34,925 nt of DNA from NCBI GenBank assembly GCA_016190305.1, contig JACPQU010000036.1:1-34925 (forward strand), given 5' to 3'. Both the position numbers and the translations under genes were made by a program. The DNA is from Bacillota bacterium (lineage in GTDB: Bacteria; Bacillota; JACPQU01). Within the stretch, counting starts at the first letter, position 1. Every line of letters begins with the position of its first letter. Shown here piece by piece: positions 4,909 to 34,301 of the stretch. The notes beneath the pieces were generated by a model. That model did not search any database. It was not told the DNA's origin and saw only the letters and a program-made list of their open reading frames with translations.

Positions 4909-4975
4909 AGCCGTCCTTTCTTGGAAGACAAGTCTTCAGCCACGCCAAGTCTTCATCCGACCGAAACCGGGAGGA

Positions 4976-14180: not shown

Positions 14181-16738
14181 GACTCATGCTCCCGTTCTTC
14201 ATCTTCTCGCCGGTTTCCCAATTGACCGTGTTCCACCTGCCGGCTTTCTTCCCGCCGGCGAACCTGTGCCCGGGACGCACCCGTAACCACCAGCAGCGAG
14301 AAGTATTCGGGTTTCTTCCCCCGCAGAGCGCCGACATCCCTGGTCAGGTATTCCCATGGCGTGCCGCACCGCTCCACGTAGACCGCCCCATCGGCCAGAC
14401 CCTCGCGGTCGAGGAGATCGATCAGCGTATCCAGATGCTCCCCGAGCTTCATGATTACCACCGTCTCGAAGGCTTTCAGGGCCGCCTCGATCCTGGCCGG
14501 CCCGGCGCTCGCCGGCAGCACCGCCACCCCTTCGTCCTCCACGGCAAGCGGCAGGAGGGCCGCCGCCGAAGCAGCGGAGATGGAGGAGATCCCGGGGATC
14601 ACGCTGATCGGGGAGCCCGGGGAGAGCTGCTTGACCTCCTCGGCCAAGTAAGTCCAGGTGCTATACCAAGCGGGATCCCCTTCAGTCAAAAAGGCGCAAT
14701 GGTGGCCGCGGAGAAGCCGTTCGGCCACGCAGCGGGCCGCCTCCCGCCATGCCTCGGTCAGGGCGGCGCGGTCCCTGGTCATCGGGAAATCGAGGGGAAT
14801 CAACTCCTGCACGCCCGGGTGGAGGAGATCCTCCACCACCGACAAGGCGTAGCTCCGGTGAGCGCTCGACTTACGGGGAAAGCAGACGACCGGAACGTGG
14901 CTCAGGACCTCACGGGCCCCGACCGTCAGAAGGAACGGGTCCCCGGGCCCCACCCCGATCCCGATGAGGGACCCAGGCCCGACTGCCGGTTCTCCCTTCG
15001 CAACCTTTGCAGCATCCGAAACCTTTGTACCGTTTGCATCGTTCGCACCTATCGCACCCATTGCTTCCATCGCGTCCTGTTCTACCTCGTTCCCGGGATT
15101 GTCGATTCCGCATGTTCCGACCGGTCCCGTTCCCGTCGGCGTACCGAGGGTTCCCAGTGTTCCTGCTTCGCCTTGACCCGGGTTTCCCCTGGCGGCGACT
15201 TCGACGGTAGCGACTTCCCCGATGGCGGCTCCTTGCCCCTTTTCGGCCGTGATGATCCAGACCGGATCCAGGGCTTCGAACCGCGTCAGTCCCTGGAGGT
15301 CGCGCCCCCGGGAAACCTGCACCTGGATGACCTCCGGGGCGAAACCCGCTTCTTTGAGGGCTGCCAGGGTCTGATGCAGGGTCTCCACCGTTGCGGCGTT
15401 GACCGTCAGCCGGCCGCCGGGAGTCAAACGCGCAGCCGCTGTCCGCAGGATCTCCCGGAGACGCCCTCCCGAGCCGCCCACGAAGACGGCGTCCGGCGGC
15501 GGGGCTCCCTCGAAGGTCTCCGGCGCTTCCCCCTGCCTGATTTCCAGGTTGACGGCTCCGAAACGAGCCGCGTTGGCCCGGATGTGCTCCACCGCCTCCG
15601 GGTTCCGCTCAAAGGCGACCGCCCGGCCGCGCGGCGCGGCCAGGGCCGCTTCCACGGCCACCGACCCGGATCCGGCCCCCACGTCCCACACCACGCTGTC
15701 CTCGCGGAGACCCAGAGAGGCCAGACAGAGAATCCTCACCTCACGCTTGGTAATCATCCCCCGGCGCGGAGCGCGGAATTGAAACTCTTCATCACGGATC
15801 CCGGTGACTAGTCGGGCTGCGTTTTCGTTCGGACGGGCTGAGTTTCCGGGTCCGGCCCCGACGGGCCGGGCGGATAATTTCAACGCGGTGAGGTCGTCTT
15901 CGGCTTCGGACAACAGGCTGCCGGGAGCCGGCTTGAGGATCACGATGTTGGGATAATCGAAGCTTTCTTGGGCCATTATGCGCAAGGTCCCCTCCCAGAT
16001 CCGCTCTCTTTCTTCACTCCCGAGGCGCTCACACACGAAGGCAGGGCAGTCGGGCACCCCCCGGGAAAGGAGAAAAGAAGCCACGGCGGCCGGATTGTGC
16101 TTGTGATCGGTCAGGATGGCGAGTTTCCGGATGGCTGCGTTCCGGCCCGGCCCCTCGCCCGGTCCCCCGGTGGTTTCGCGAGTCAGTCCCGGATTCAGTC
16201 CCTGGGCCAGCCCCGCCAGTTCGTCCAGGGACCGCCCGTGGACGCTGAAGAAAGCCGCGTCTTCCCAGGTTTCCCCGATCCGCGCGAAGGCGAGCTGCAC
16301 CCAGCTCACCGCCGGAACGATCTCCACCTGTTCCCTTCCGAACTCGCGGAGCAGAAAGGAAGCGACCCCAAAGAAACCCGGATCCCCCGACGCCAGGACG
16401 ACGATCCTTCCATTCCCGGGGTCAGCCGGGCAGGTTTCAGCGTCGATTTCCGCGCGGGTTCCCATTCGGGTTTCGGCGCGGGTTTCCCGGATGGCCGCGG
16501 CCAGGCTGCCGAGGCCTGCGCGGATGGGCAGGCGGCGTCCCCCCGCATCGGGAAACATGTCCAGCAGGTACTGTCCTCCCGCCAGCAGCGAGGCCGAGAG
16601 CACCGCCTTCCGCCACCGGTCCCCCAGGGCAGACGGCCCGTCGGGGCCCACTCCAATGACCAGGATCTTTTCCGGAATCTTCTCCGGATCGCAGCTCCCT
16701 ATTTCTTCTTGACCGCCCGGCGCCTGATCAAAGCTCAA
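14177..16738 (-). CDS. cbiE-cbiT-cbiL: Triple fusion: cobalt-precorrin-7 C5-methyltransferase (CbiE), cobalt-precorrin-6B C15-methyltransferase/decarboxylase (CbiT) and cobalt-factor II C20-methyltransferase (CbiL)
   Basis: CbiE-like, about 15929-16669 (ILVIGVGPDG, VVLASGDPGFFG, IVPAVSW). CbiT-like SAM methylase, about 15239-15802 (ITKREVR, VWDVGAGSGSVAVEAA). Linker at about 14975-15238. CbiL-like, 14180-14974 (LIGIGVGPGDPFLLT, FLTEGDPAWYST, VIPGISS). GGGAGG RBS lies 7 nt before TTG 16738. Confidence 0.85.
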   Translation of the reverse strand: MSFDQAPGGQEEIGSCDPEKIPEKILVIGVGPDGPSALGDRWRKAVLSASLLAGGQYLLDMFPDAGGRRLPIRAGLGSLAAAIRETRAETRMGTRAEIDAETCPADPGNGRIVVLASGDPGFFGVASFLLREFGREQVEIVPAVSWVQLAFARIGETWEDAAFFSVHGRSLDELAGLAQGLNPGLTRETTGGPGEGPGRNAAIRKLAILTDHKHNPAAVASFLLSRGVPDCPAFVCERLGSEERERIWEGTLRIMAQESFDYPNIVILKPAPGSLLSEAEDDLTALKLSARPVGAGPGNSARPNENAARLVTGIRDEEFQFRAPRRGMITKREVRILCLASLGLREDSVVWDVGAGSGSVAVEAALAAPRGRAVAFERNPEAVEHIRANAARFGAVNLEIRQGEAPETFEGAPPPDAVFVGGSGGRLREILRTAAARLTPGGRLTVNAATVETLHQTLAALKEAGFAPEVIQVQVSRGRDLQGLTRFEALDPVWIITAEKGQGAAIGEVATVEVAARGNPGQGEAGTLGTLGTPTGTGPVGTCGIDNPGNEVEQDAMEAMGAIGANDANGTKVSDAAKVAKGEPAVGPGSLIGIGVGPGDPFLLTVGAREVLSHVPVVCFPRKSSAHRSYALSVVEDLLHPGVQELIPLDFPMTRDRAALTEAWREAARCVAERLLRGHHCAFLTEGDPAWYSTWTYLAEEVKQLSPGSPISVIPGISSISAASAAALLPLAVEDEGVAVLPASAGPARIEAALKAFETVVIMKLGEHLDTLIDLLDREGLADGAVYVERCGTPWEYLTRDVGALRGKKPEYFSLLVVTGASRAQVRRREESRQVEHGQLGNRREDEEREHES

Positions 16739-17882
16739 CAGTAGACCTCCCCAGGCCGGCGGATCCCGCCAGGATCGAACCGTCGAAACCGACGATCACC
16801 ACTTCCACCTCGACGGCCTCTCCCGCGTGTCCCGCCAGTCGCATGGCCGCCTGCCCGGCCAGCCGCCGGAAGGCGTCGCCCGCCCCCGCGGCGGCGATCA
16901 GTTCGGACGCCAGGCGGGCGGTTCCGGACTCCTCGATCAGGCGGGTCGTCTCCAGGCCGGCCCCGGCGGCGGAGGCCACATCGGCCAGCAGGCGGAAGGG
17001 CACCCGTCCTGCGTAGGCGTGGGTCTGAAAAATGCCGGCGGCCAGCTTGGAGATCTTACCGATCATCCCCCATACCGATACCCGGTCGAAACCCTTCCGG
17101 GCCGCTGCCTTTACCGCGTAGCCTGTGAAATCCCCGGCCACGACGAAGGCTTCCTCCGGAAGATCGATTCCAAACTCCTCCTGCGCCGCCCTGTCGCTGC
17201 GGCTCCCGGTGGTCAGCACCACCTTGCGGCAGCCCGATGCCCTGGCGACATCCAGGGCCCGGCTGACCGAGGCCCGGTAGGCGCCGGTGGAGTAGGGCAC
17301 CACGATCCCGGTCGTCCCCAGGATCGAGATCCCGCCCACGACCCCGAGCCGCGGGTTCATGGTCTTCTCGGCCAACCGCAGCCCTTCCGGCACCGAGACG
17401 ACCACCCTGGCTCCGGGCAGCAGGTCCTCCAGGGCCCGGGTGATCATCCGGCGCGGAACCGCGGTCACGGCCGGTTCGCCCACCGGGATCCCTAATCCCG
17501 GCTTGGTAACGGTTCCGACTCCCTCACCGGCCTCGATGGCGATCCCGGGGCCTTGCCCGGGAAATACCTCCGCCCTAATCTCGGCACCATGGGTCACGTC
17601 CGGATCATCCCCCGCGTCCTTGATCACCGAGGCCCAAGCCGACGCAGGAAAAGCAGCCTGTGCATCCACCCCCGGGAGGCCCACAGAGCCCAAGCCGCCG
17701 TCCCGGATCGGGATCACCGCCGAGTCCCCGCCCGGCAGAGTCACCTCCACCTCCGCGGGGGCCGCCCCGTCCCGGAGACAAATGGCCGCAGCCCTCGCGG
17801 CGGCGGCGGCGCAGGTGCCGGTGCTGTAACCGTAGCGGAGCTTTCTCCCCGCCGTCTCACCGGGCCTGGCTTTACGGGGCAT
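16728..17882 (-). CDS. cbiD: Cobalt-precorrin-5B C1-methyltransferase
   Basis: LRYGYSTGTCAAAAARAA N-terminal signature and GDDPDVTHG, ILGTTGIVVPYS motifs. I chose ATG 17882, 15 aa before LRYGYSTG and overlapping the hemA stop by 11 nt. ATG 17906 or 17900 are also possible. The track start at 18086 reads the hemA tail out of frame. Confidence 0.85.
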   Translation of the reverse strand: MPRKARPGETAGRKLRYGYSTGTCAAAAARAAAICLRDGAAPAEVEVTLPGGDSAVIPIRDGGLGSVGLPGVDAQAAFPASAWASVIKDAGDDPDVTHGAEIRAEVFPGQGPGIAIEAGEGVGTVTKPGLGIPVGEPAVTAVPRRMITRALEDLLPGARVVVSVPEGLRLAEKTMNPRLGVVGGISILGTTGIVVPYSTGAYRASVSRALDVARASGCRKVVLTTGSRSDRAAQEEFGIDLPEEAFVVAGDFTGYAVKAAARKGFDRVSVWGMIGKISKLAAGIFQTHAYAGRVPFRLLADVASAAGAGLETTRLIEESGTARLASELIAAAGAGDAFRRLAGQAAMRLAGHAGEAVEVEVVIVGFDGSILAGSAGLGRSTVEL

Positions 17883-19368
17883 CCCGCTCACCGCCTTCAT
17901 CCGCATCGCGGACCATACCCGAATCCGCGGGGCCCGTGTTTGTATCCAAACCCGTGCCCGGACCGGTGACGGTGCTCGATCCCGCGCCTGAACCGGTGCC
18001 TGGGTCCTGGCCTGGGTACGTGTCTGGGTCCTGGCCTGGGTACGTGTCTGGGCTCGTATCCGTGCCCATATCCTTGTCCAGCTCAAAGAGGCGGGAGACC
18101 ATCTCCAGACCCGCCGGGTACTCCCCCCCGGCAGAGGCCAGCTCTTTAAGAGCCTCCAGGGGGCCGCGGATGAACCCCTTCATCAGGGAGCGTGTGAACT
18201 GTTCGATCTTGGCCTGTTCCCGGGGGGAGAGGGCGGCCAGGTCCCGCTCGAAACGGCCGGTGGTGCGAAGCCGGAGTTCCTCCGCCCTCTCCCGGAGAGC
18301 CTTCAGGTAGGGGGCCACCTCGCGCTCGCGCCACCATTTCACGAAGGCCTCCGTTTCGGCCTCAACCAAGGCCTCCGCTTTCTCCGCCTCCGCCAACCGC
18401 TCCCGGTTGGAGTCCTCGACCACCCGGTGGAGGTCGTCGATATCGAACAGCCGGATTTGGCATTTCCCGTTCGGATCCAGTTCAGCCTCAACATCACGCT
18501 CCACGTCACGCGGAACCGCGATATCGATGAGGCAAAGGGGGGAGCGCCGTTCGCCGGCGACGCTGCGGAGCATGTCCCCGGTCACGACGTACCCCTGGGC
18601 GTTGGTGCAGCAGATCACAATGTCCGCCTCCGACAGGGCTTCCCGGAGAGAATCCCAGGATACGGGCGTCCCGCCCAGTTCCCCGGCCAGTTCCTCGGCC
18701 CTTTTCAGGTTCCGGTTCGCCACCAAGATCCTGCCGGCGCCGCGGTCGCGCATGAGACCGGCAGCCAGCCTGCCCATGGCCCCCGCACCCACCACCAGCA
18801 CCGTCCGGTCCGCCAGGTCACGGCCCCCTCCGCCTGTCACGGACCGGGCCAAGGCGACCGCCGCTCCCGGGATCGACGCCCGGCCGTTGTTGATCCCGGT
18901 CAGGGTCCGCACCCGTTTTCCCAGGGATAGGGCCCTCTGGAAGAGCCCGTTGAGCACCGCATCGGTGGCCCCGGCGCGGCCGGCCGCCATGTAAGCAGCC
19001 CGCACCTGTCCCAGGATCTCATCCTCCCCGAGCACCAGGGAGTCCAGGCCGGAAACGACCCTCAGCAAGTGCTCCACCGCCCGGGCGTTGGATAGGAGGG
19101 TCAGGTGAGTACGAAAAGAAGAATAGTCCAAACCCGACCGCCTGGAGAGATAACTGATCAACACCCGGAACCCCGCGTGGACCCGGGTCGCCAGGGCGTA
19201 GACCTCCACCCGGTTGCACGTGGAGAGGATGACGGCGGAACGTAGCTCCGGAGCCGCCTCGAGCAGGCGCCGCAACTCCGGCTCCATCTCTCCGGCCGGG
19301 ACCGAGAACTTCTCCCGCACCTCCACCGGCACCCGGTGGTGGCTCAAGCCCACCAGAACCAGGTCCAA
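17872..19368 (-). CDS. hemA: Glutamyl-tRNA reductase with a roughly 68-aa Gly/Thr/Pro/Asp-rich C-terminal tail
   Basis: MDLVLVGLSHHRVPVEVREKF...ILSTCNRVEVYA (catalytic Cys motif) and an NADPH-binding VLVVGAGAMG. TTG start with a GGAGGGGG RBS. Confidence 0.9.
   Translation of the reverse strand: MDLVLVGLSHHRVPVEVREKFSVPAGEMEPELRRLLEAAPELRSAVILSTCNRVEVYALATRVHAGFRVLISYLSRRSGLDYSSFRTHLTLLSNARAVEHLLRVVSGLDSLVLGEDEILGQVRAAYMAAGRAGATDAVLNGLFQRALSLGKRVRTLTGINNGRASIPGAAVALARSVTGGGGRDLADRTVLVVGAGAMGRLAAGLMRDRGAGRILVANRNLKRAEELAGELGGTPVSWDSLREALSEADIVICCTNAQGYVVTGDMLRSVAGERRSPLCLIDIAVPRDVERDVEAELDPNGKCQIRLFDIDDLHRVVEDSNRERLAEAEKAEALVEAETEAFVKWWREREVAPYLKALRERAEELRLRTTGRFERDLAALSPREQAKIEQFTRSLMKGFIRGPLEALKELASAGGEYPAGLEMVSRLFELDKDMGTDTSPDTYPGQDPDTYPGQDPGTGSGAGSSTVTGPGTGLDTNTGPADSGMVRDADEGGERDAP
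18001..18048. repeat. Perfect 24-bp x 2 tandem duplication (TGGGTCCTGGCCTGGGTACGTGTC), in frame inside the hemA tail (PDTYPGQD x 2)
   Basis: Read directly: 18001-18024 is identical to 18025-18048. A partial third start (TGGGCT) follows. Confidence 0.95.
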
Positions 19369-19463: not shown

Positions 19464-19901
19464 TCAGCGGCCGGCCTTCAGCGACGCAATCTCCTCGCGC
19501 TCCTCGCTCTCCCTTTCGCTCTCCCGCTCGCTCTCTTGAACCCGCTCCACGACGATCTCCACCAGCTTGGGGTGAAACCCGATATGGTGGCCAAGGGTGA
19601 TCTCCACCCCCGGATACCTGCCTCGCAAGGTATCCACGACGCTGGGAAGATCCTCCTGGACATGGAGGCCGAAGTGGAGGAAGTAGGGGAGCATCAGCAC
19701 CGAGGTCGCACCCTGGGAGACACAGGTTGCCATCCCCTCTTCAATTGACGGGGGCGATAACTGGAGAAAAGCCACCTCCACAATGGGGTACTCCTCTCGC
19801 AAGCGGAGGTGCTCGGCCACCTTCCTGATGGCCACGTTGGCCTTGGGAGCCCTGCTGCCATGGCCGAGAAGGAGGATCGCTCTTACGGATTCAGTTTGCA
19901 T
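19464..19901 (-). CDS. cbiX: Short-form sirohydrochlorin cobaltochelatase (CbiX/SirB family) with an acidic ESERESERESEEREE tail
   Basis: ILLLGHGSRAPKAN...LMLPYFLHFGLHVQEDLP matches the CbiX(S) His-containing motifs. GGAGG RBS lies 9 nt before ATG 19901; the track start at 19994 lacks support. Cobalt versus iron specificity cannot be read from the sequence; cobalt is inferred from context. Confidence 0.8.
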   Translation of the reverse strand: MQTESVRAILLLGHGSRAPKANVAIRKVAEHLRLREEYPIVEVAFLQLSPPSIEEGMATCVSQGATSVLMLPYFLHFGLHVQEDLPSVVDTLRGRYPGVEITLGHHIGFHPKLVEIVVERVQESERESERESEEREEIASLKAGR

Positions 19902-19918
19902 TATCGCATTCCTCCAAA

Positions 19919-19962
19919 CCCAATTCCTGGGACTCCTATGCCCAATTCCTGGGACTTCTATG
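19919..19962. repeat. 22-bp x 2 tandem repeat (CCCAATTCCTGGGACTYCTATG) in the cobT-cbiX intergenic region, 18-61 nt upstream of the cbiX start
   Basis: 19919-19940 and 19941-19962 differ at one position. A weak third copy (about half the positions) follows at 19963-19984. Confidence 0.9.
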
Positions 19963-20079
19963 CCGGTTCCCGGGCTTGTCCCTGCCCCTCTCACCCCTGC
20001 GGCCTTCGGCCGGCCTGCCCGACCACGGTTCCCGGCCGCACATCCATCCCCTATACTCTACCGCATGCCCTGCCGCCGG

Positions 20080-21147
20080 CTACCCCTCGATGGCCGTGGA
20101 AACCCCCGCCTCGCCGAAGGTGGCCATCTCCCTGATGATCCTGGCGGAGGCCTCCACCAGGTTCATGGCCAGGACGGCGCCTGTCCCCTCCCCGAGTCTC
20201 ATCCGCAACCGGAGCACCGGTTCCAGTCCCAGCAGTTCCAGGCAGATGCGGTGCCCGGGCTCCTCGGAGAGGTGAGAGGCGATCATGAAAGAGGTCGCTT
20301 CCCGCTTGATCCTGGCGGCGACCAGGGCGGCCGCCCCAGCGATGAAACCGTCGATGATGATCGGCACCCGCCGGGCCGCAGCCCCGAGGATCAATCCGGC
20401 CAGTCCCCCGATTTCGAAGCCGCCGAGGGCGGCCAGGACCGCGATCCCGTCCCTGGGATCCGGGCTGTTGGCGGCCAAAGCCCGTTCGACCACCGCAACT
20501 TTGTCCCGGCGGCGTTCCCCGTCGATCCCCGTGCCGGATCCGACCAGCGTCTGCACAGGCATCCCGGCGAAAGCGGCCGTGATAGCGCTGCTGGGGGTGG
20601 TGTTCCCGATCCCCATGTCCCCGGTGGCCAAAAGCGCGGCTCCTTTCTCGACCTCTGCCGAAGCCACCGCGATCCCGGCCTCCAGGGCGGCAACGGCGTC
20701 CTCCCTGTCCATCGCCGGGCCCGCGGCGATGTTCCGCGTACCAGGCCGGATCTTGCGCGACAAGACCGCGGGGTCGGCCACTTCCCCGGCCACTCCCATG
20801 TCCACCACGACCACCCGCGCTCCGGCCTGCCGGGCGAGGACGTTGATCCCTGCGCCGCCCCGGACGAAGTTGGCGATCATCTGGACGGTGACCTCCTGCG
20901 GGTAGGCCGATACGCCCTCGGCCGTCACCCCGTGGTCCCCGGCCATGACCACCACGGCCTTGTCCACCGGCCAGCCGGCAGGGGGAACGGTCTTCCCGCT
21001 GATCCCCGCCAGCTTCGCCGCCAGATCCTCTAGGACGCCCAGGCTCCCAAGGGGCTTGGTCAGGTTGTCGAGCCGTTTGCGCGCAGCCGCTATGGCCGAC
21101 CCATCCGGTTTGCCAATCTCCGCCAGCGTTCTTTCGAGCAATCTCAT
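20080..21147 (-). CDS. cobT: Nicotinate-nucleotide--dimethylbenzimidazole phosphoribosyltransferase
   Basis: LDNLTKPLGSLGVLEDLA, MAGDHGV, GDMGIGNTT and a glutamate-containing LRMRLGEGTGA motif typical of CobT. The ATG lies 4 nt after the upstream stop, with GGGAG inside the upstream gene. Confidence 0.9.
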   Translation of the reverse strand: MRLLERTLAEIGKPDGSAIAAARKRLDNLTKPLGSLGVLEDLAAKLAGISGKTVPPAGWPVDKAVVVMAGDHGVTAEGVSAYPQEVTVQMIANFVRGGAGINVLARQAGARVVVVDMGVAGEVADPAVLSRKIRPGTRNIAAGPAMDREDAVAALEAGIAVASAEVEKGAALLATGDMGIGNTTPSSAITAAFAGMPVQTLVGSGTGIDGERRRDKVAVVERALAANSPDPRDGIAVLAALGGFEIGGLAGLILGAAARRVPIIIDGFIAGAAALVAARIKREATSFMIASHLSEEPGHRICLELLGLEPVLRLRMRLGEGTGAVLAMNLVEASARIIREMATFGEAGVSTAIEG

Positions 21148-21151
21148 CCCG

Positions 21152-22543
21152 TCAGCTCCCTTGATTGGTTGTTTTCGATTCCGAGAGGCGGCGCTCCATA
21201 CTGCGGATCGCCGCCAGGGCCTTTAGCACATGGCGGCTTTCGACAAGGGGTGATCCTTCCTCCGCGGCCAGGTCACCCGCGGCCCTCACCAGCCCCCCCA
21301 GATCCCGCAAGCGCAAGGTGAGCCCGCCTTGGCTACCCGCCATCCGCCGCGCCTCCCCGATGATCTCTTCGAGCCCGCTCCGGTGAAAGGGCGGGATCCT
21401 CCCGTCTTTACCCACTTCCTGGGCCACGAAGATCGCCAGCTTGTACCTGTTGGCCGGCGAATCGGGCATAGTCTCCCGCAGCAAGACCTCGTATCCATAG
21501 CCCCTGATCCTGGACCTGAGCGCGGGATGGAGCCCGGCCACCGTTTCCTTGTTCCCGGCGGCGACCAGGAGGAACCGGCAGGGGACGGGCGCGGTCCGGA
21601 CCATGGCCCCTGCCGAGGTCTCGCTCTGCCCGGTGATGGCGAATTCCCCATCCTGGATGGCCGTGAGGAGCTGCTGCTGGGTGTGGCGTTCCAGGGTGCC
21701 GATCTCGTCGACGTAAAGAACCCCCAGGTGCGCCTTATGGATCAGGCCGGCTACCACCCGGATGTGGGGCGGGGTCCCCAGGCCTCCTGACTGGTAAGGG
21801 TCGTGGAGGACATCCCCCAGAAGCGCCCCGGCGTGGGCTCCGGATCCATCCCAGAAGGGCGCTCCTTCCCACCCTCCGTTGTCCACGATCAGGGCGGGCT
21901 GGGAGAGATCCGTGCGGTGCCCCCCTCCCGGACGCCCCTGCGCAAGGAGGAAGGCGAGCAGTCCAAAACCGGCTACGCCGCTCACGGCAAAAGAGAGGAA
22001 CATGATGGCTCCCACGGTGGGGGAGTAGGACGCGTTCCAGCGGGCGAAGGCCCACCACGGAGCCAGCGCCGCCAGGAGAAAGGCAAAGCCCAGGAAAAAC
22101 CAGCGGGCAGCTTTCCGTCGCCTCCGGATCCCTGGATCCGGGCCCCAAGGGAAGTCCGACACCGGATCGCCGCCGCCCCTGGCCTGGAACCGCCCGGTGT
22201 GGCGGCGTCCTTCCCCCGCCGGGACGACCCGAACCAGGGGCTGGAAGGGATCGTAAGGGTTCTGTTCTGCCAGAACGTCCACCAGGGGCTCCCGGGAGAG
22301 GAGATCCGAGAGGGCCTTCCCGAGCATGCTTTTGCCGGTGCCTGGCTCGCCGATCAGGAAGAGATGGCGTCGCTGCCGGGCGGCCCGCCTGAGAATCTCG
22401 ACCGCTTCCTCCTGTCCGATCACCTGCTCGACCAAGGCCGAAGGAATCCTGATGGAATCGGTCGTTTCCGGCAGGACGTACCCCGATGCCTCTTCCCCGC
22501 TATTCAGATCCGGCCCGTTCGCCGCCTTTTCCGTGTGCCCCAC
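21152..22543 (-). CDS. LonB-type AAA+ ATPase with an inserted transmembrane hairpin but no Lon protease domain
   Basis: Walker [11 protein letters not shown], Walker B VLYVDEIG, plus [63 protein letters not shown] and [17 protein letters not shown], all as in archaeal-type LonB. Two hydrophobic helices lie at about 21941-22105. The ORF ends right after the AAA lid helices, and cobT starts 4 nt later. Confidence 0.75.
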
Positions 22544-23405: not shown

Positions 23406-23612
23406 TCAGTGGCAGCCGATGAATCCGGTGGCGTGCCTGAGTTCGTGGAAAAAGTCATGCGTGGCCGGGTACGCGGAAAAGAAGACGGCGTACAGGGCGG
23501 CGGCGAGGAAGACGGTGATGGCCACAACCTGGAACCTGGCCGAGAAAACGAAACCAAAGATGTTGACCTCCCTGAGCCTGGTCCTGGTGGCCTCCCTGAC
23601 AGCGTGAAACAC
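23406..23612 (-). CDS. cbtB: CbtB-like small membrane protein (putative cobalt transporter subunit)
   Basis: 68 aa with a basic N-terminus and one TM helix (IFGFVFSARFQVVAITVFLAAALYAVFF). The C-terminal THDFFHELRHATGFIGCH matches the H-D-x-x-H-(D/E)-x-R-H-x-x-G-F-x-C-H end of the CbtB family as I recall it. GGGGGGAG RBS lies 7 nt before the GTG. Confidence 0.75.
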   Translation of the reverse strand: MFHAVREATRTRLREVNIFGFVFSARFQVVAITVFLAAALYAVFFSAYPATHDFFHELRHATGFIGCH

Positions 23613-23796: not shown

Positions 23797-25041
23797 TCAC
23801 GCATATCGAGCAATGAATCGGCGCCGCTGGATCAGGGCCGCTGCAACGAACCCAAGAAGGAACGTCCCCATCAGCAAGGCCAAGTCCTTCAGGCGCCTCG
23901 CCAAGGTGGGCTGCACCGGGGCGATTCCCAGCTCCACCTGGCCCTCAAAGGGTTCAAAGGAGGTCGGATCCTCAGGTTCAGCGGGCCGAACCGAGATCCC
24001 CGCCGTGAACTCCTCTCCCTCGGGAAAGTGATAAAGAAACGTGGTTTGGCCCTGAGGGGCCAGGAGGCTGAGCTTGAACATTTTCTCCACCTGGCCATGT
24101 TCTTCCATAACCATCTCGACCTCGAGGAGGGCGCCGGAAAGCGGTTGCCCGTCGTCCCCGAAGACCTCCAGGTTCACCATTGCCGGGGCATCCATCCTGG
24201 GATCCGCGGGGGAAGTTTGCAGCCGGATCCGGCCCCCGGCCGTCTCGTGAAGTCCCAGTCCGGCTGGGTGCGGCTCGCCGTGGGCATGGACCACACCGGA
24301 GACCCCGCCGGCCGCCGACAGGAGTAAACCCTGGAGCAGGAGCAGGGTAAGGGCACCCCGTACGGCTCCGGGATTTGGGCCCGCAGAACTTCCCCTTTTC
24401 CAGCCCAGGAATTCCGGGCCATAGAGCCAGCCGACCACCAAACCGAAAAGCAGCAAACCGCCGAGAAGGAGGCCGCTCCACAGGAACTTCTGGGGATCTT
24501 CCCTGACGGCCACCTTGAATTCGTCCTGGCCAATGGGGGCAACCCCGGCTTGGCCTGGTTGACCCTCATCCGGTCCGGAACCATATGCCCTCACGTACAA
24601 GCCGTAGGTTCCACGGATGGGGAAGCGGAAATCCTCCAGCACCCACCTGCCCGCGGACACGGCGGTTGTGACCGACAGGATCCTGGAGCCCTCCAGGTAC
24701 GGAAGATCGGTCCCGATGATCCGCCGGCGGCTCCCGAGATGCCTGATCTCGACCTCCAGGGAAGCGTCCGGAGCCGGCGCACCGGTCCCCGCCTCCATAA
24801 CTTCGAAGACGAGGTCCCTGGTCTCCCCCGCGATTATGGGCAGGGTGGAATCATCGCCCGAACTGAACTTGACAACGTACTCTCCAGGGGCCGCAGCCAC
24901 CTCGGCCGAGACCGGCCTCGCAGCGTGGGATCCGGGGAGGCTGGTCGGAACGGCTTGCAGGAACAGGGCCAGGAAGACACCGGCGGCGATCAAAACCAGC
25001 TTGGACTGGGCGAAGCGAAACCAGGAGCAAACTCGAAACAC
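23797..25041 (-). CDS. Unknown 4-TM membrane protein with two extracytoplasmic beta-rich domains and an HAHGEPH-x7-H motif
   Basis: It is the first ORF after the riboswitch terminator. AAGGGGGAG RBS lies 7 nt before GTG 25041; the track start at 25089 sits in the terminator U-tract. Hydrophobic helices begin at aa 31, 203, 244 and 403 (track numbering). Internal repeat: LVFEVMEAGTGAPAPDASLEVEIRH versus VNLEVFGDDGQPLSGALLEVEMVMEEH. The His cluster is at 24247-24288. Confidence 0.6.
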   Translation of the reverse strand: MFRVCSWFRFAQSKLVLIAAGVFLALFLQAVPTSLPGSHAARPVSAEVAAAPGEYVVKFSSGDDSTLPIIAGETRDLVFEVMEAGTGAPAPDASLEVEIRHLGSRRRIIGTDLPYLEGSRILSVTTAVSAGRWVLEDFRFPIRGTYGLYVRAYGSGPDEGQPGQAGVAPIGQDEFKVAVREDPQKFLWSGLLLGGLLLFGLVVGWLYGPEFLGWKRGSSAGPNPGAVRGALTLLLLQGLLLSAAGGVSGVVHAHGEPHPAGLGLHETAGGRIRLQTSPADPRMDAPAMVNLEVFGDDGQPLSGALLEVEMVMEEHGQVEKMFKLSLLAPQGQTTFLYHFPEGEEFTAGISVRPAEPEDPTSFEPFEGQVELGIAPVQPTLARRLKDLALLMGTFLLGFVAAALIQRRRFIARYA

Positions 25042-25086
25042 GGTCAAACTCCCCCTTTTTTCCCGGTACCAAGAAGTCCACCGCGT

Positions 25087-25121
25087 CACGAAGAAAGCCC
25101 CCGACCATTTCGGTCGGGGGC
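25087..25121 (-). terminator. Intrinsic terminator forming the expression platform of the cobalamin riboswitch
   Basis: The minus strand reads GCCCCCGACC-gaaat-GGTCGGGGGC, a perfect 10-bp stem (25097-25121), followed by TTTCTTCGT. Confidence 0.7.
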
Positions 25122-25159: not shown

Positions 25160-25352
25160 AGGTCGCGCTGGTACGTATGGGCGGGTAGGTCTCCTGGCTC
25201 CCGGATCCTCGCCTGCCGCCACGCCTTCCCGTTTCCGATCCGGAAACAGTGGCTCTATGGTCTTACGGCAGACAGGCTCCCCGGTTACAGTGGCGGGACC
25301 GCGCCGGACTCTCACCGGCTTCCCTTATTCACCCTCGAGGGGCACCCGACCA
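25160..25352 (-). promoter_or_regulatory. Cobalamin (B12) riboswitch aptamer
   Basis: The minus strand reads GAATAAGGGAAGCCGGTGAGAGTCCGGCGCGGTCCCGCCACTGTAACCGG (core at 25287-25324). A B12-box-like GAGCCAGGAGACCTACCC lies at 25183-25200. Both match the conserved cobalamin riboswitch elements. Confidence 0.88.
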
Positions 25353-25537
25353 ACTAGTTTTTTCAGTGAAGCTTGTACTTTTGGGTCTATCAGGCTCCTT
25401 TGTGCAATCTTTCGTCCCAAACCCAATTCTACCTCCGGATCCAAAAAGGATCAAGGGATCGGGTAGTTACATAAAATCCCATCCGGCTTCCTGCGAGTCT
25501 TGCGAATCAAGGAGACAAGATTCGAGTTGAAAAATCG

Positions 25538-26023
25538 TCAAATTTTATCTATAGCCCGCCAGGCCTTGTAACCAAAAGCAGCGGCCGCCAGATCAAGCAT
25601 GCCGATAAAAGGCGTTCCCCTGATGATCACCAGAACCAAGAGGCCGATGGTCGCTGCAGCGAATGTACAGCCGATGACGACATTGCCTGCGTTGCCCTTG
25701 CTGCCGGATAGCAGCGTTTTATAGGCTCCGAAATGGAGTAAAGCAATCATCCCGCCGCTAAGTATGAGGCCCAAAATATCGCCCATCGTCAGGGCCAAAC
25801 CAAACAGAGCGGCCAGGGCGATTTGAAAGTGCAGCACTTGTTTGGCTGCAGTTTGCATATTCTCTGCTGGTTTTGATGCGGGAGATGCCGAAAGATTGAT
25901 TTGGGGATAAGGCCCCCCTAACTGGGACTGAGATGCCGACCCGTTCGTAACTCTCGTTCCGCAGGAAGAGCAGAAAGAATCGCCTTCCTCCACCTGGTTA
26001 CCGCATTTTCCGCAGTAAGCCAA
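25538..26023 (-). CDS. Zinc-ribbon domain membrane protein
   Basis: N-terminal CGKCGNQVEEGDSFCSSCG (CxxC-x11-CxxC), a Ser/Gln/Pro linker, then 3-4 hydrophobic helices. GGAGG lies 8 nt before TTG 26023. The track start GTG 26032 overlaps the RBS itself. Confidence 0.6.
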   Translation of the reverse strand: MAYCGKCGNQVEEGDSFCSSCGTRVTNGSASQSQLGGPYPQINLSASPASKPAENMQTAAKQVLHFQIALAALFGLALTMGDILGLILSGGMIALLHFGAYKTLLSGSKGNAGNVVIGCTFAAATIGLLVLVIIRGTPFIGMLDLAAAAFGYKAWRAIDKI

Positions 26024-26201
26024 ACCAATCACCTCCGTATATTTTCGGCAGTCGGTCTAGACATCCAGGGCAGGGCTTGACGTTTTCCCGCAATTTCCGC
26101 AATGGCGACACACTTAAAGATACGTTTTTTTCAAAAGGATCCCTTGCCGGATGGGTGTAAGTTCCAAAGATGATGACAAATTTCAAGGGGGGTCAACGAA
26201 C

Positions 26202-26588
26202 ATGGAGAGGATCAACCCGGAAGGAATCCATAAGCCTGGTACAGCCTACTCCCATATCGTCAAGGCAGGAAAGACCCTGTACATCGCGGGCCAGATCGCC
26301 CTCGACCCTGCGGGAAATATCGTCGGGGTGGGAAATGCTGCCGCCCAAGCGAGGCAGGTCTACGAGAATCTCAAAGCGTGCCTCGCCTCACAAGGCCTCG
26401 GAATGGACCGGGTGGTCAAGATCACCACCTATGTCACGTCGCGGGATTATCTTGACGCCGTCCGGGACCAGCGGAGTTCTTACTTCCCGCTGGGCTCCGC
26501 GCCGGCCAGCACCCTGCTGGTCGTCGCCGGCCTGGCCCGGCCGGAATTGCTCATCGAGATCGATGCCATTGCCGTTCTTCCCGGGTAA
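26202..26588 (+). CDS. ridA: RidA/YjgF/UK114-family reactive-intermediate deaminase
   Basis: YSHIVKAGKTLYIAGQIALDPAGNIVG...QARQVYENLKACL...VVKITTYV...PASTLLVVAGLARPELLIEIDAIA is a typical RidA pattern. AAGGGGGG RBS lies 9 nt before ATG 26202. Confidence 0.85.
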   Translation: MERINPEGIHKPGTAYSHIVKAGKTLYIAGQIALDPAGNIVGVGNAAAQARQVYENLKACLASQGLGMDRVVKITTYVTSRDYLDAVRDQRSSYFPLGSAPASTLLVVAGLARPELLIEIDAIAVLPG

Positions 26589-26684
26589 CCGTTCCGTTAT
26601 AACCTGAAGAGTTGTTGCCGTAACGATGAACATTCGTCAAGAAACGTTCATTTCATTACCGGCGTGGTCCAGAGCCCCAATGCT

Positions 26685-27326
26685 TCACGGACGATCCGGG
26701 CCTTCGCCTGCCCCGGCAACGTGTACCTTGCCTCGTATAGACTTACGCCCGCTCCGCACCAGGATGAGGATATCAACAATTCCCTTTTTATTCGTGGGAT
26801 CGTTAAGCCCCTCGGCAGCTTGAACGGCCATGACATCCACCCACCCGTGCTGGACGAAGCGGGAATAGATCCGGGTTTGCTCGCCGGTCGGTTCTTCGAT
26901 ATAAACCTGCCAGGGCTGCCCGTCATCCCAGATAAAGTCGTCCTGATTCAAACCTTTCAAATGGGGGTCTAACTTGCTTACCTCCGCGACCAGGTGCAGG
27001 GTTTCGATGACCCCATCCCTGTCCAGGTCCATCTCTGACGTCCGGTGATAGTCCCCTTTCAACGGGCGGTCGTGTCGAGGTTCCACAAGGTCCGCGGTCC
27101 AAGGATGATCCGGCAATTTCGGTTCATTCAATTGTATCGGCTCCTCCGGTTCCTTGGGTTCCTCCGGTTCCTTCAGTTCCTTTGGTTTTTCCCGGTTTTC
27201 AGGCAAGGTTTCCGGATTTTTAAGCACGGGTGAACCCGGTTCAATAGTGGTGACTAACCACCAGACTCCGATGATTGCGACCAAAAATCCGATTACAATC
27301 CCTATGGCTAAAACACGGCCGCTCAT
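26685..27326 (-). CDS. Hypothetical membrane-anchored protein with an acidic Lys/Glu/Pro repeat linker
   Basis: GGGGGA lies 7 nt before ATG 27326. It has an N-terminal TM helix (VLAIGIVIGFLVAIIGVWWLV), then KPKELKEPEEPKEPEEP, then a globular part containing DLDRDGVIE. No family recognised. Confidence 0.5.
   Translation of the reverse strand: MSGRVLAIGIVIGFLVAIIGVWWLVTTIEPGSPVLKNPETLPENREKPKELKEPEEPKEPEEPIQLNEPKLPDHPWTADLVEPRHDRPLKGDYHRTSEMDLDRDGVIETLHLVAEVSKLDPHLKGLNQDDFIWDDGQPWQVYIEEPTGEQTRIYSRFVQHGWVDVMAVQAAEGLNDPTNKKGIVDILILVRSGRKSIRGKVHVAGAGEGPDRP
27142..27195. repeat. Imperfect 18-bp tandem repeat (about 2.5-3 units) encoding the (E/K)PEEPK linker
   Basis: TCCTCCGGTTCCTT occurs at 27142-27155 and 27160-27173. 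A degenerate third unit lies at 27178-27195. Confidence 0.7.
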
Positions 27327-27629
27327 CCAAAATTCCCCCAGTTTACCCCATACCAAACAGAAAAGAGAAAGGTGCGATATTCGGCCTGCAGTATTGCCAC
27401 AGAAATTCTTCAGATGGAATTGTTGAAATGAATAGGCTGGTTTTAGGAGTTCGGGTAAAAAGACTTGTCGCCTACGGAAACTGCATGGTAAATTCAGGCA
27501 ACTCTAAACAGAGGAAGGCAACTGGCATTGAGATTCTTTACCGGTATTGCAGGACGGGTACAGCGAATGCAAATGGAAGACAGGCCATAGAGTTATCGAC
27601 AAGCAAGATATTCAGAGGGGGTCAAGAGA

Positions 27630-28208
27630 ATGGCCAGGACGTGGCAAGGCGCGATCATCCACCATTCGGCTTCTCCAGCCTCTACGACCACTATGGCCGA
27701 TATCGACCGCTGGCACCGGGAGCGCGGTTGGCGGGGGATCGGATACCACTGGGGGATCTACCCCACCGGCCAGGTGGAGCGCGGGCGCCCGGATGATCAA
27801 GACGGAGCCCATGCGGGGCAACCGTGGAACCGGACGCACCTGGGGATCGTGCTTATCGGAAACTTCGAACATCAGCCGCCGACCTCAGAACAGTACCAAG
27901 CCCTTCGGGATTTGTTGGACCGCCTTGAATTCGGCCGGGAAAAGGTCAAGCTCCACCGAGGCGTGTCGGCCACCTCCTGCCCTGGTAGACTCTTTGAGTT
28001 TGAACAAGTCTGGAGAGAGGCCGGCGTTCAGCCGGGACCCGCCAGGATTCGCGTCTTCGTCGCCGACCAGGAACTTAACACTCAGGCCGTAAGGGTCGAA
28101 GGCAAGATTTACCTGCCTATCCGAGACGTGGGCGAGGCCTTGGGCGCCCGGGTGCACTGGGAGCGCGTCGGCGGGGAGGAGATTGTCCGAATCGAGCCCG
28201 GGCTCTAA
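27630..28208 (+). CDS. N-acetylmuramoyl-L-alanine amidase (Amidase_2/PGRP fold) with a C-terminal copper-amine-oxidase-N-like stalk domain
   Basis: GAIIHHSAS...IDRWHRERGWRGIGYHW..GAHAG..WNRTHLGIVLIGNF...HRGVSATSCPG are Amidase_2 Zn-site motifs. The C-terminal VRVEGKIYLPIRDVGEALGARVHWE is typical of the Cu_amine_oxidN1 domain. AGAGGGGG RBS precedes the ATG. Confidence 0.8.
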   Translation: MARTWQGAIIHHSASPASTTTMADIDRWHRERGWRGIGYHWGIYPTGQVERGRPDDQDGAHAGQPWNRTHLGIVLIGNFEHQPPTSEQYQALRDLLDRLEFGREKVKLHRGVSATSCPGRLFEFEQVWREAGVQPGPARIRVFVADQELNTQAVRVEGKIYLPIRDVGEALGARVHWERVGGEEIVRIEPGL

Positions 28209-28754
28209 CCGGAGCGGGTTGCTCCCAGAATGGTTAGTCTTGTCCCGAGTTCACACACCATTCACACACCAAACACCTGTTTGGATTTGGATGGCAGGTT
28301 ATGTACTTGTACAGGTGGTAAAAGATCCGCTGCTCTCGCGAGACCCCTCTTAGTCCTTGCTGCGTCTGGGTCGTGGCTCATGGATAATATCCCAAGTTGG
28401 TTGAGTTTGGCCTAATCTTGGCAGGTTGCACGATTAGGGACAAGGAGCGCATTGCAGTGCCGGAAATGGATAGGACATTGGAAAGCATTTTTAGACTTCA
28501 CCACCCAATCTTGGAGACTGAATTGGGAGGGGAGTCCGGGGTGGGAGAAGAACTCTGCGGCATAACGGGTCGATCATCAGCCTTTGAGCCGATCCGGCAG
28601 GCCATATCGTCCGGGGCCTGAAGTTCCGTCACACCGGCTGGGTATTGAATCGCCCCCGGCCTTTATGGGGGAGCCAAAGGGCAACGGGTCACCTAGTCTT
28701 CGTCTTAGGTATAGCGTAGTACGACATCTACATGACTGTATGCGGAGGTCAGTC

Positions 28755-32927: not shown

Positions 32928-32962
32928 AAAACCCGCCAACCCTTGCGGCTGGCGGGTTTATG
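32926..32962. terminator. Bidirectional intrinsic terminator shared by the kinase gene (+) and tRNA-Val (-)
   Basis: ACCCGCCA (32931-32938) pairs with TGGCGGGT (32950-32957). The stem is flanked by AAAAA on the left, which reads TTTTT on the minus strand, and by TTTATGCTT on the right. Confidence 0.75.
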
Positions 32963-32964
32963 CT

Positions 32965-33039
32965 TGGTGGGCGAAACAGGATTTGAACCTGTGACCCCCT
33001 GCTTGTAAGGCAGGTGCTCTCCCGCTGAGCTATTCGCCC
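32965..33039 (-). tRNA. tRNA-Val, anticodon TAC, with encoded CCA
   Basis: The reverse complement is GGGCGAATAGCTCAGCGGGAGAGCACCTGCCTTACAAGCAGGGGGTCACAGGTTCAAATCCTGTTTCGCCCACCA. It folds as a cloverleaf: 7-bp acceptor GGGCGAA/TTCGCCC, D stem GCTC/GAGC, anticodon stem CCTGC/GCAGG with loop CTTACAA, and T stem ACAGG/CCTGT with loop TTCAAAT. Confidence 0.93.
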
Positions 33040-33111
33040 AAACTATTTTAAATGGCCAAACTCTTTTTAATTATCCTGGTCAACTCGTAGCAGGTCTCAG
33101 TTGCAAACTCA

Positions 33112-33140
33112 AGTATAGCCAAGCCCATCCATAACGTCAA
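33112..33140 (-). promoter_or_regulatory. Sigma-A/sigma-70-type promoter (TTGACG - 17 nt - TATACT) about 72 nt upstream of tRNA-Val
   Basis: On the minus strand TTGACG is at 33140-33135 and TATACT at 33117-33112, with an exact 17-nt spacer. Confidence 0.55.
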
Positions 33141-33158
33141 TCAAAGCTCATCTTCAGC

Positions 33159-33491
33159 TTACTCGCTGGCAAACAACGTGAAAAAAGGCGGGAAGGTTCC
33201 CAAGAGGCCCAAGCCTACGGTGATCAACGTGGCAATGAAAGCTTTACCGAAATCAACCTGCTTGTTCTTCCAGAACATGTTCAGGACCCCCCAAACAATG
33301 ATCCATGCAACCACTGCTAAAGTGGTTTTACCGCTCAGGGGGCCGACCACCTGGTAAAAAGTCAAAAAATTCTTGATCGCTTCGCTTACCTCGGCAAGGA
33401 TCGTGATGAGTCCCAAGGCCAAGCTACCGATACCCGCAGCCAGGAGAGCTGCGGCAGCAGGCCCATTTGGAAGCGATTCCTTTTTTACCAT
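33159..33491 (-). CDS. Small hydrophobic membrane protein (110 aa, about 3 TM), no family recognised
   Basis: ATG-initiated ORF with three long hydrophobic stretches (AAALLAAGIGSLALGLITILA, TTLAVVAWIIVWGVL, FIATLITVGLGLLGTF). Same strand as, and 78 nt downstream of, the next membrane protein gene. Confidence 0.5.
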   Translation of the reverse strand: MVKKESLPNGPAAAALLAAGIGSLALGLITILAEVSEAIKNFLTFYQVVGPLSGKTTLAVVAWIIVWGVLNMFWKNKQVDFGKAFIATLITVGLGLLGTFPPFFTLFASE

Positions 33492-33569
33492 TATTAGATC
33501 CTCTCCTTGACTGGATTTTGAGGATCTTGGATTTTGACGTCAATTTTAATTTCGTATAGTTTTTTAACG

Positions 33570-34112: not shown

Positions 34113-34236
34113 TAAGAGTTATTTAGCTGAGGACAATAATCTAAAAACCTAAAAATGTTCCTGTGATCGTGAAAAGAGTATGTGGGACTATGGATAAAAT
34201 TAGTCCGGTAAAAGGTGGAAAGAGGTATCCAACGGC

Positions 34237-34268
34237 GGAAAAACAGAGGCAGGCGGCGCTTCGCCGCC
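34237..34268 (-). terminator. Intrinsic terminator downstream of the carboxypeptidase gene
   Basis: The minus strand reads GGCGGCG-aag-CGCCGCC (34252-34268), followed by TGCCTCTGTTTTTCC. Confidence 0.65.
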
Positions 34269-34301
34269 CAACCCCAAAGACATCAAAACACGTCCTGCAG
34301 G

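Follow-up and report, generated by a model that had tools for sequence, protein, structure and literature searches.

The 34,925-nt stretch of contig JACPQU010000036.1 from a Bacillota bacterium (the window, meaning this whole stretch) contains, within a vitamin B12 (B12) operon headed by a cobalamin riboswitch, a gene for an AAA+ ATPase that, judged from its sequence, is derived from the archaeal-type protease LonB and lacks the protease domain. A gene for a CbtB-like peptide and genes for two further membrane proteins, termed A and B, recur directly upstream of such ATPases in 11 independent loci, several of which carry cobalt or B12 genes, and the ATPase probably serves as motor subunit in a conserved module of four to five genes for cobalt acquisition. 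No account of an AAA+ ATPase of the LonB type, or of any other unfoldase type, in connection with CbtB or cobalt uptake turned up in the full-text literature. An initial interpretation made from the DNA letters without database searches (the sequence-only reading) had likewise held that such a protein has no functional precedent, and this still holds in the literature searched.

The ATPase gene is an unbroken frame of 463 codons with a GTG start, preceded at 8 nt by a Shine-Dalgarno-like AAGGGG (-14 to -9). Its product matches the NCBIfam LonB model TIGR00764 with 454.8 bits (E 4.8e-136), which falls below the curated whole-protein cut-off of 516.6 bits because the match spans only about positions 1-400 of the 608 in the model. 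Residues 385-445 match the LonB LID domain of Pfam (PF20436; E 1.2e-9, 38.5 bits, cut-off 22.4 bits), and the nearest solved structures are LonB of Thermococcus onnurineus (TonLonB; 3K1J) and its AAA+ fragment (4ZPX), both at E ~1e-121. In a word-indexed search of 5.8e9 proteins, the closest full-length relatives were LonBs of DPANN archaea, at 53-57% identity, and no orthologue above 57% was found. The public gene call for this frame (P0001) comprises only 283 residues and starts at M181, inside the second membrane helix, which would remove Walker A; homology running from residue 26 supports the 463-residue reading.

The sequence-only reading had described every hallmark of the LonB ATPase as legible and had placed a two-helix membrane insertion between Walker A and Walker B. 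Each motif that it quoted was confirmed, with coordinates checked by translation (Table 1), and the insertion was recovered as two hydrophobic segments, residues 149-167 and 182-200, that align with the hairpin region of the DPANN LonBs. None of the ATPase motifs (Walker A, Walker B, sensors 1 and 2, arginine finger) is degraded, the pore-loop aromatic is likewise kept, and the conservation of the pore-loop and arginine-finger positions, which had been proposed for scrutiny, was upheld in the alignment, Y250 included. The segment carrying Y250 is one that we take, from established knowledge and our own alignment to LonA and TonLonB, to be pore loop 1. Forty diverse cluster representatives that have the protease share 55 columns at 90% conservation or more; the ATPase agrees with them in 51 of these, and the four deviations (A to G, T to S, I to V and A to G) are all conservative. 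Compared with 119 close DPANN LonBs, some 17-18 changes fall at highly conserved columns of the AAA module, at positions that vary across the wider family. Residues that might separate protease-less from protease-bearing forms were sought in the alignments, and none was convincing.

The protease domain is absent, as had been claimed from the close spacing of the downstream gene. The stop codon (21152-21154) lies 18 residues past the LID and is followed after 4 nt by cobT, which is full length (DBI_PRT profile positions 1-329 of 329, E 7.7e-133; ATG at 21147) and whose ribosome-binding site, AAGGGAG, sits inside the end of the ATPase frame. There is neither room for a protease domain nor a remnant of one: tblastn of two LonB protease domains against the whole 35-kb window gave a best E of 0.23, a hidden Markov model (HMM) of the Lon protease domain matched no open reading frame (ORF) of the window, and a Pfam scan of the ATPase returned no match to the Ser-Lys protease domain, PF05362 (Lon_C).

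Loss of the protease domain is widespread among relatives. An exhaustive search of 1.84e9 cluster representatives with the ATPase returned 958 matches, 188 of them at E<=1e-30, and among the 74 listed representatives in which the AAA module is covered in full, 33 are without the protease domain. These 33 proteins end no more than about 70 residues past the last aligned position (query ~442-461), many within 3-8 residues, and, because the ends cluster at or near one domain boundary, they are unlike random contig breaks. They comprise short forms of 399-469 residues, forms with an N-terminal HEAT-like extension of 190-320 residues, and a Micrarchaeota type without the hairpin. Nine aligned protease-less ATPases from the module described below stop roughly 3-45 residues from the R(S/T)(L/M)E.Q linker.

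Other relatives retain a C-terminal domain in various states of divergence. In the module relative P0132 (locus L032), it keeps the Ser and Lys and scores 20.9 bits, compared with more than 166 for canonical LonB; in the module relative P0146 (L036), the catalytic Ser has become Pro; and in P0154, P0136 and P0139, the Ser is lost and the Lys is replaced by Arg or Leu, P0139 (L035) lying outside the module. All five fall in the same distance-tree branches as protease-less forms. Because the C-terminal domain has diverged in L032, carries Ser-to-Pro in L036 and is absent elsewhere, comparison of these proteins indicates that proteolysis is dispensable in the context of the module. The ATPase motifs are kept throughout the module except in L031, in which the sensor-1 Asn is Leu and the pore-loop aromatic is His, and two hydrophobic hairpin helices were detected in seven of eight module ATPases scanned, the L027 protein having only one above threshold.

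The Micrarchaeota-type LonB-like ATPases (L013, 5812-7416; L015; L033, 1199-2689) are proteins of 416-534 residues without protease and hairpin, and the L013 protein has a CxxC...CxxC (zinc-ribbon-like) insert in place of the hairpin. They are not associated with CbtB, A or B, and by sequence this type looks like a second, separate protease-less LonB lineage.

To count as the module, a locus had to encode the CbtB-like peptide, A and B (as two proteins or as one fusion) and a LonB-type AAA+ protein in closely spaced genes of one direction. The window contains a fused A-B gene (AB430), a CbtB-like ORF and the ATPase gene, all on the minus strand. In L012 (Chloroflexota), a 649-residue HEAT-LonB(AAA) protein with the same end point as the window ATPase is encoded directly downstream of a CbtB-like ORF and of two small proteins, A and B, each of which consists of a signal or transmembrane helix, a beta-rich domain and a C-terminal transmembrane helix. 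The full module was found in nine of 11 further representatives (L023/24, L025/26, L027/28, L029, L030, L031, L032, L034 and L036), or in nine of the ten looked up when the Micrarchaeota-type L033, which has no module, is set aside. The sequence-only reading had raised the recurrence of truncated LonB genes beside cbtB, and the survey bore this out, with the same CbtB/A/B neighbourhood in ten loci besides the window; in all 11, CbtB-like, A and B genes (or an A-B fusion) stand directly upstream of the ATPase gene.

HMMs for A, B and the CbtB-like peptide found all three in L032 and L034, which were not in the training set, at E 1e-29 to 1e-50, and found nothing in 17 canonical or Micrarchaeota-type LonB loci. 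The A and B models cross-match weakly, and on this account the two proteins are regarded, from sequence, as paralogues. The genes are arranged as CbtB-A-B or A-B-CbtB, and five loci, the window among them, have an A-B fusion. A HEAT unit is fused to the ATPase in L012, L029, L030, L032 and L034, is encoded separately just upstream in L031 and L036, and is absent from the window, L023 and L027; the adaptor is thus not universal, and the window ATPase has no N-terminal extension. The C-terminal motif of the CbtB-like peptides, HD..H..RH.....(P/G)CH, is invariant in 10 module loci, and the B proteins usually have a His-rich stretch after the signal sequence together with H-x-E-D and D-G-x-x-H motifs. 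Neither Pfam nor NCBIfam has a family model for the protease-less ATPase, which matches only that of the LonB protease, or for A, B and the HEAT unit. Scanning metagenomes with the alignment of CbtB-like peptides brought up just two relatives of L012. One close L012 relative, L022, has an A gene (10131-10640) that breaks off some 100 codons in and continues as a fragment of an ABC ATPase, with B and the ATPase missing, and is either a deletion variant or a chimeric contig.

The neighbourhoods of the module tie it to cobalt. The window, L023 and L027 each have a cobalamin riboswitch ahead of it and adjoining cob genes. Its neighbours in L025/26 are a gene for a NikR-type regulator on one side and cbiMNQO on the other; a gene for a Fur-family regulator comes after it in L030, and one of the NicO family stands opposite it in L031. 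In L029, the operon immediately downstream is that of a nitrile hydratase (beta, alpha and accessory genes; 4270-5935), whose alpha subunit carries VCTLCSCY, which we take to be the signature of cobalt-type nitrile hydratase. Taken together, these neighbours point to a link with cobalt rather than corrinoids, and to metal acquisition under scarcity of cobalt or B12 rather than efflux; the conserved CbtB-like tail and B-protein residues fit the same interpretation. The sequence-only reading had noted cobalt-related genes nearby, which took shape as the CbtB-like ORF (25.4 bits) and the riboswitch (108.6 bits), and had suggested an unfoldase or translocase acting on corrinoid or cobalt-handling proteins: the cobalt side of that suggestion is supported by the 11-locus neighbourhood, and the corrinoid side is not. 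As separate observations, the low-GC locus L023 (3039-7832) has, between riboswitch and module, a gene for a 469-residue protein with a signal peptide and a C-terminal Phe, features that suggest an outer-membrane beta-barrel, and it encodes a protein with a Cu/Zn superoxide dismutase-like (Sod_Cu) domain directly after the ATPase.

The relationship of AB430 to A and B came to light only through the L012 neighbourhood; a word-based search for homologues returned the query alone, and no Pfam or NCBIfam family was matched. Its N-terminal half matches L012 A (E 4e-7) and its C-terminal half L012 B (E 1e-6) in colinear fashion, and the A and B HMMs, for which the window belonged to the training set, score it at 5.7e-57 and 9.9e-60. 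A hydropathy scan revealed four hydrophobic segments. The N-terminal half consists of a signal or transmembrane helix, a predicted beta-sandwich ectodomain A with the motifs TDLPYLEG and PIRGTY, and two transmembrane helices, and the C-terminal half of a His-rich stretch, VHAHGEPHPAGLGLHE, a predicted beta-sandwich ectodomain B and a C-terminal transmembrane helix. A single-sequence AlphaFold2 (AF2) model was poor (predicted local distance difference test, pLDDT, 51) and placed two beta-sandwiches between helices. Foldseek with this model returned generic tandem beta-sandwich matches only, PmoB on top, and with TM-scores of 0.1-0.2 the resemblance to PmoB was set aside as a topological echo.

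The CbtB-like peptide of the window is 42% identical to the small ORF of L012 and approaches the CbtB models from below: it scores 25.4 bits on PF09489 (E 1.6e-5; cut-off 27) and 19.3 bits on TIGR02459 (cut-off 64.4); the HD..H..RH.....CH motif can nevertheless be read clearly in it. The orphan orf256, which occupies the slot where other loci have a HEAT-repeat protein or the N-terminal HEAT extension of the ATPase, had no homologue besides the query among 5.8e9 proteins. Its GC content at third codon positions (GC3) is 0.76, with GC3>GC1>GC2, which fits a real gene. Its single-sequence AF2 model was poor and helical, and its position suggests a role in the HEAT slot. The idea that it is a diverged HEAT adaptor was rejected after hhalign against the HEAT extensions gave a probability of 0.07%.

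These elements can be assembled into a working model. When B12 is low, the riboswitch-controlled module would be made and would supply Co2+ to the CbiX-type chelatase, its presumed consumer in the window. The ectodomains of A and B, which are predicted to stand outside on transmembrane helices with short basic C-terminal tails inside, and the His/Cys/Asp-rich C-terminus of the CbtB-like peptide, likewise predicted outside with its basic N-terminus inside, would capture Co2+ outside the membrane as the putative metal-binding proteins. In the TonLonB structure, the ring lies under the membrane with its entry pore facing the bilayer. The module ATPase would form a hexameric ring held in the same way by twelve hairpin helices, with its pore toward the bilayer, and, having no protease chamber, would open to the cytoplasm and act as a membrane-anchored translocase or extractase on the cytoplasmic tail of a partner. 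Using ATP, the pore loops would grip this tail, most plausibly the basic N-terminus of CbtB or the C-terminal tails of A and B, and pulling or remodelling of the partner would move or release Co2+ on the cytoplasmic side with no need for proteolysis. The inward direction of transport, like the ATPase activity itself, is a prediction of this model, and the Co2+ released would serve CbiX or, in other loci, other cobalt enzymes. A bolder version, which we think doubtful, would make the system a new class of metal importer in which the ring threads CbtB, loaded with metal by the A and B ectodomains, out of the membrane and thereby delivers Co2+ into the cytoplasm. Under that version, the protease would be ancestral and repeatedly lost, having perhaps once degraded the shuttle peptide. 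We know of no metal transporter that has an AAA+ translocase as its engine.

Several observations weigh against a motor subunit of a cobalt module, or against the membership of the window ATPase in the same lineage as the others. No cobalt gene or riboswitch was seen near the module in L012, L032, L034 and L036, of which L032 and L036 are short contigs and for which the riboswitch scan left out L034 and L036, as well as L035; for the stretch ahead of the L012 module, a threshold of E<=1 still gave no riboswitch. No ATPase takes part in the predicted action of canonical CbtAB, and the need for energy is not obvious. P0139, a related LonB-like protein of bacterial origin and with a dead protease, is encoded outside the module, the slot before the window ATPase holds an orphan without detectable HEAT similarity, and the B domain of the window carries VHAHGEPHPAGLGLHE and is without the otherwise conserved FFDGAxH (D-G-x-x-H) motif. 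The beta-sandwich fold of A and B derives from weak Pfam hints (Big_1, YtkA) and a low-confidence model. The window ATPase is 53-57% identical to DPANN LonB, compared with 46% to the L012 module ATPase, and is closer to canonical LonB in motif detail than the other bacterial module ATPases. A phylogeny of the AAA module had been proposed earlier, and neighbour-joining trees were made; the placements of the window ATPase disagree between them, bootstraps putting it with canonical LonB in 36% and with module members in 54%. The window ATPase may have come from a LonB AAA module that joined the same neighbourhood in a separate recruitment.

On the points counted for and against each, the motor-subunit interpretation was placed above four rivals. 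According to one, the ATPase would be a cytoplasmic motor resembling ChlI/BchI/CobS or MoxR, and its ATP would be spent on inserting cobalt into client proteins such as CbiX and nitrile hydratase, not on passing the metal through the membrane. AAA+ motors do power cobalt and magnesium chelatases (PMC7689651). The ATPase gene stands directly before that for CbiX in L027 and one gene away from it in the window, and the ATPase has weak local matches to Mg_chelatase and ChlI profiles; however, these are generic P-loop stretches (BchI-ChlI, E 1.6e-7 over ~80 residues), compared with E 4.8e-136 for LonB. Moreover, no CobN/ChlH or von Willebrand factor A (vWA) partner is encoded in the window, CbiX-type chelatases are known to be ATP-independent, the constant partners are membrane or extracytoplasmic proteins and the hairpin helices are present in seven of eight module ATPases. 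The potential clients vary by locus (CbiX, nitrile hydratase, none) while CbtB, A and B are constant, and insertion of metal in the cytoplasm appears unlikely. We give the same low credence to a regulatory or quality-control extractase that removes, resets or takes apart the CbtB/A/B transporter, for instance to stop uptake at excess cobalt, and hands its proteins to other proteases, much as Msp1/ATAD1 or the AAA ring of FtsH treat membrane proteins. Intact pore loops and a membrane anchor would suit such a role, the ancestral LonB is a membrane protein-quality-control protease, and some module members retain a protease-like C-terminal domain, with Ser and Lys in P0132. Yet it would be wasteful to place a shut-off device under the 'B12-low' riboswitch of the transporter itself when riboswitch, NikR and Fur already provide shut-off, and the occurrence of the full module in nine of ten non-Micrarchaeota representatives with tight operon spacing suggests a stoichiometric subunit rather than an occasional regulator.

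The two remaining rivals concern the missing domain itself. A split Lon, in which a protease domain encoded elsewhere joins the ATPase in trans to restore an ATP-dependent protease, is conceivable in that stand-alone Lon protease-domain proteins are known in prokaryotes and the window represents only 35 kb of its source genome. The HMM, however, detected no such ORF either in the window or within 5-6 kb on the flanks of the other ten module loci, and the diverged C-terminal domain in L032 and Ser-to-Pro change in L036 argue against selection for proteolysis, making a protease in trans very improbable. The least credible alternative is that the gene is an assembly artefact, or what is left of an archaeal lonB that arrived by horizontal transfer and is decaying, and that its place inside the operon alone has preserved it. 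The DPANN affinity, the ceiling of 57% identity among 5.8e9 proteins and the shortened public gene call could be read in this way, and the sequence-only reading had itself entertained a decayed gene kept for operon continuity. This was rejected on motif retention, codon composition and a recurrent truncation point. The 463-codon frame is unbroken, with all catalytic residues and the 51 of 55 conserved columns; GC3 of the gene is 0.80, fully within the 0.73-0.85 of the surrounding cob genes, which argues against a recent arrival from a low-GC archaeon; and the truncation falls exactly at a domain boundary, with a proper stop and a coupled cobT start, a boundary shared by dozens of independent representatives and nine other module loci. 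As part of the motor-subunit interpretation as a whole, and with the confidence attached to it, the ATPase would appear to be a functional, membrane-anchored AAA+ protein that lacks the protease by design.

Comparison with known systems places the protein nearest to archaeal LonB (TIGR00764; MEROPS S16; 3K1J, 4ZPX), with which it shares the AAA+ subfamily, the inserted hairpin, the PF20436 LID and the ATPase and pore-loop motifs. Archaeal LonB is a stand-alone housekeeping protease with a Ser-Lys domain and no N-terminal HEAT extension, whereas the window ATPase stops 18 residues after the LID and is encoded in a bacterial B12-riboswitch operon with cobalt-handling partners, and many module relatives have the extension. 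The converse loss is exemplified by LonC of Meiothermus (PDB 4FW9), which keeps its protease and has lost ATPase function (PMC3391209); both proteins retain a Lon module after losing one activity, and the window protein is the one that keeps the ATPase. Class I chelatase motors (ChlI/BchI, CobS) and MoxR maturases are also metal-handling AAA+ proteins, of tetrapyrrole or metalloenzyme pathways and sometimes encoded in cob clusters, but they belong to a different AAA+ clade, are soluble and work with vWA and CobN/ChlH partners that are absent from the window. Msp1/ATAD1 and the AAA ring of FtsH offer a functional analogy only, as membrane-tethered hexameric rings that thread tails, Msp1 also without a protease; they represent another AAA+ clade with an N-terminal transmembrane anchor rather than an inserted hairpin, and have no link to metals. 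By this analogy, the window ATPase, which retains Y250 and its membrane anchor, could thread the tail of a membrane protein as Msp1 and FtsH do.

The CbtAB system (PF09489 CbtB, PF09490 CbtA) resembles the module in its single-span CbtB-like peptide with an HD..H..RH....PCH tail and in cobalamin riboswitch control beside cob genes. It differs in that the module pairs CbtB with A, B and a LonB-type ATPase, and its CbtB-like peptides score below, or weakly against, the Pfam and NCBIfam models. The five-helix CbtA (PF09490) was matched by none of the scanned ORFs of the window operon and appears in none of the Pfam tables of the other module loci. CbtAB was reportedly predicted to be a cobalt transporter, from B12-riboswitch regulons, by Rodionov and colleagues in 2003, and to our knowledge the CbtB family has until now been assigned to transport by prediction alone. 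Neither CbtA nor CbtB is mentioned in a major review of how cobalt is supplied for B12 (PMC7689651).

As a whole, the module may be a metal-uptake system of a new type. Within B12 biosynthesis, the supply of cobalt is poorly understood, and a CbtB subfamily is now tied to fixed partners and a putative ATP motor, in a defined four- to five-gene unit that makes cobalt uptake testable in a heterologous host. It also provides a clear case in which a Lon-type unfoldase is retained while the protease decays or vanishes within one functional context, so that the non-proteolytic work of a Lon ring becomes directly testable. There is in addition a risk for annotation, as protease-less members may come to be labelled 'ATP-dependent protease LonB' and the L030 member (4661-6811), a protease-less HEAT-LonB(AAA) protein of 716 residues, passes the TIGR00764 cut-off of 516.6 with 524.3 bits. 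Other protease-less members may have been shortened by gene callers, as happened in the window.

Table 1. Features of the ATPase gene and its operon, in window coordinates
Feature	Position	Strand	Basis
Sigma-70-like promoter candidate, TTGATC-17-TAGAAT, just upstream of riboswitch	25426..25454	-	Consensus match
Cobalamin riboswitch heading the operon	25167..25364	-	Rfam RF00174, 108.6 bits, E 1.6e-26, full model 1-189
AB430, 430-residue membrane protein, fused A and B module proteins	23797..25089	-	HMMs, L012 matches
CbtB-like 68-residue peptide: basic N-terminus, one transmembrane helix, C-terminal putative metal-ligand motif THDFFHELRHATGFIGCH	23406..23612	-	PF09489
orf256, orphan ORF of 256 residues, mostly helical, one hydrophobic segment	22616..23386	-	Position, composition
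LonB-type AAA+ ATPase, 463 residues, membrane hairpin and LID, no protease domain	21152..22543	-	Translation, profile matches
Walker A, GEPGTGKS	22328..22351	-	Translation; conserved in all module ATPases
Two-helix membrane hairpin, residues 149-167 and 182-200, between Walker A and Walker B	21944..22099	-	Hydropathy scan, translation
Pore-loop-1 region, aromatic Y250 kept	21770..21814	-	Alignment, translation
Walker B, GVLYVDEIG (D279, E280)	21698..21724	-	Alignment, translation
Sensor 1 (LVAAGN, N331) and arginine-finger region	21491..21568	-	Alignment, translation
LonB LID domain including sensor 2	21209..21391	-	PF20436, residues 385-445; translation
18-residue tail and stop codon; canonical LonB runs on into protease domain here	21152..21208	-	Alignment
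cobT, nicotinate-nucleotide:5,6-dimethylbenzimidazole (DMB) phosphoribosyltransferase	20080..21147	-	TIGR03160, E 6.9e-133
Small CbiX-type cobaltochelatase	19464..19994	-	PF01903, E 4.9e-28

The riboswitch-led operon lies entirely on the minus strand. It begins with the genes for AB430, the CbtB-like peptide, orf256 and the ATPase, continues with cobT, cbiX, hemA, cbiD and a set of fused genes (corrin methyltransferase, cbiG, cbiC), and ends with cobU, cobQ, cbiB, cbiA, cobS and genes for a GHMP-family kinase, an aminotransferase and a phosphatase. The promoter candidate ahead of it is the single consensus match in the region, where 0.6 would be expected by chance, and is only suggestive. The GC content of the operon (1500-25400) is 64-71%, with GC3 of 0.73-0.85, and that of the flank (25500-34925) is 50-58%, with GC3 of 0.56-0.71, a contrast which suggests that the cob operon was acquired together with the cobalt module as one unit by horizontal transfer.

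Some further features of the window were observed. The CbiX-type protein is a small archaeal-style chelatase within a bacterial riboswitch operon, and its best NCBIfam similarity is to the F430 nickel chelatase CfbA, at 78.9 bits against a cut-off of 120 bits. The listed cbiD ORF shares 215 nt with the end of hemA (17872-18086), and the overlap holds 12/24-nt tandem repeats (17986-18052) that encode low-complexity peptides in both frames (RTQARTQ... and PDTYPGQD...); the Pfam match to CbiD begins only at residue 83, and the true start is probably downstream of the one listed. Unusually large fused corrin proteins are encoded at 10235-16738: a TP_methylase-CbiC protein of 565 residues, a TP_methylase-CbiG protein of 772 residues and an 853-residue protein with a class I methyltransferase-like region and two TP_methylase stretches. 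Three further products mark the host as a bacterium, with an impression of Firmicutes-like origin: a carboxypeptidase of the penicillin-binding protein 5 (PBP5) type, an amidase carrying a Cu_amine_oxidN1 domain and, on the plus strand, at 28584-32927, a 1447-residue hybrid that combines a CheB methylesterase, a CheR methyltransferase, PAS domains, a histidine kinase and a receiver domain.

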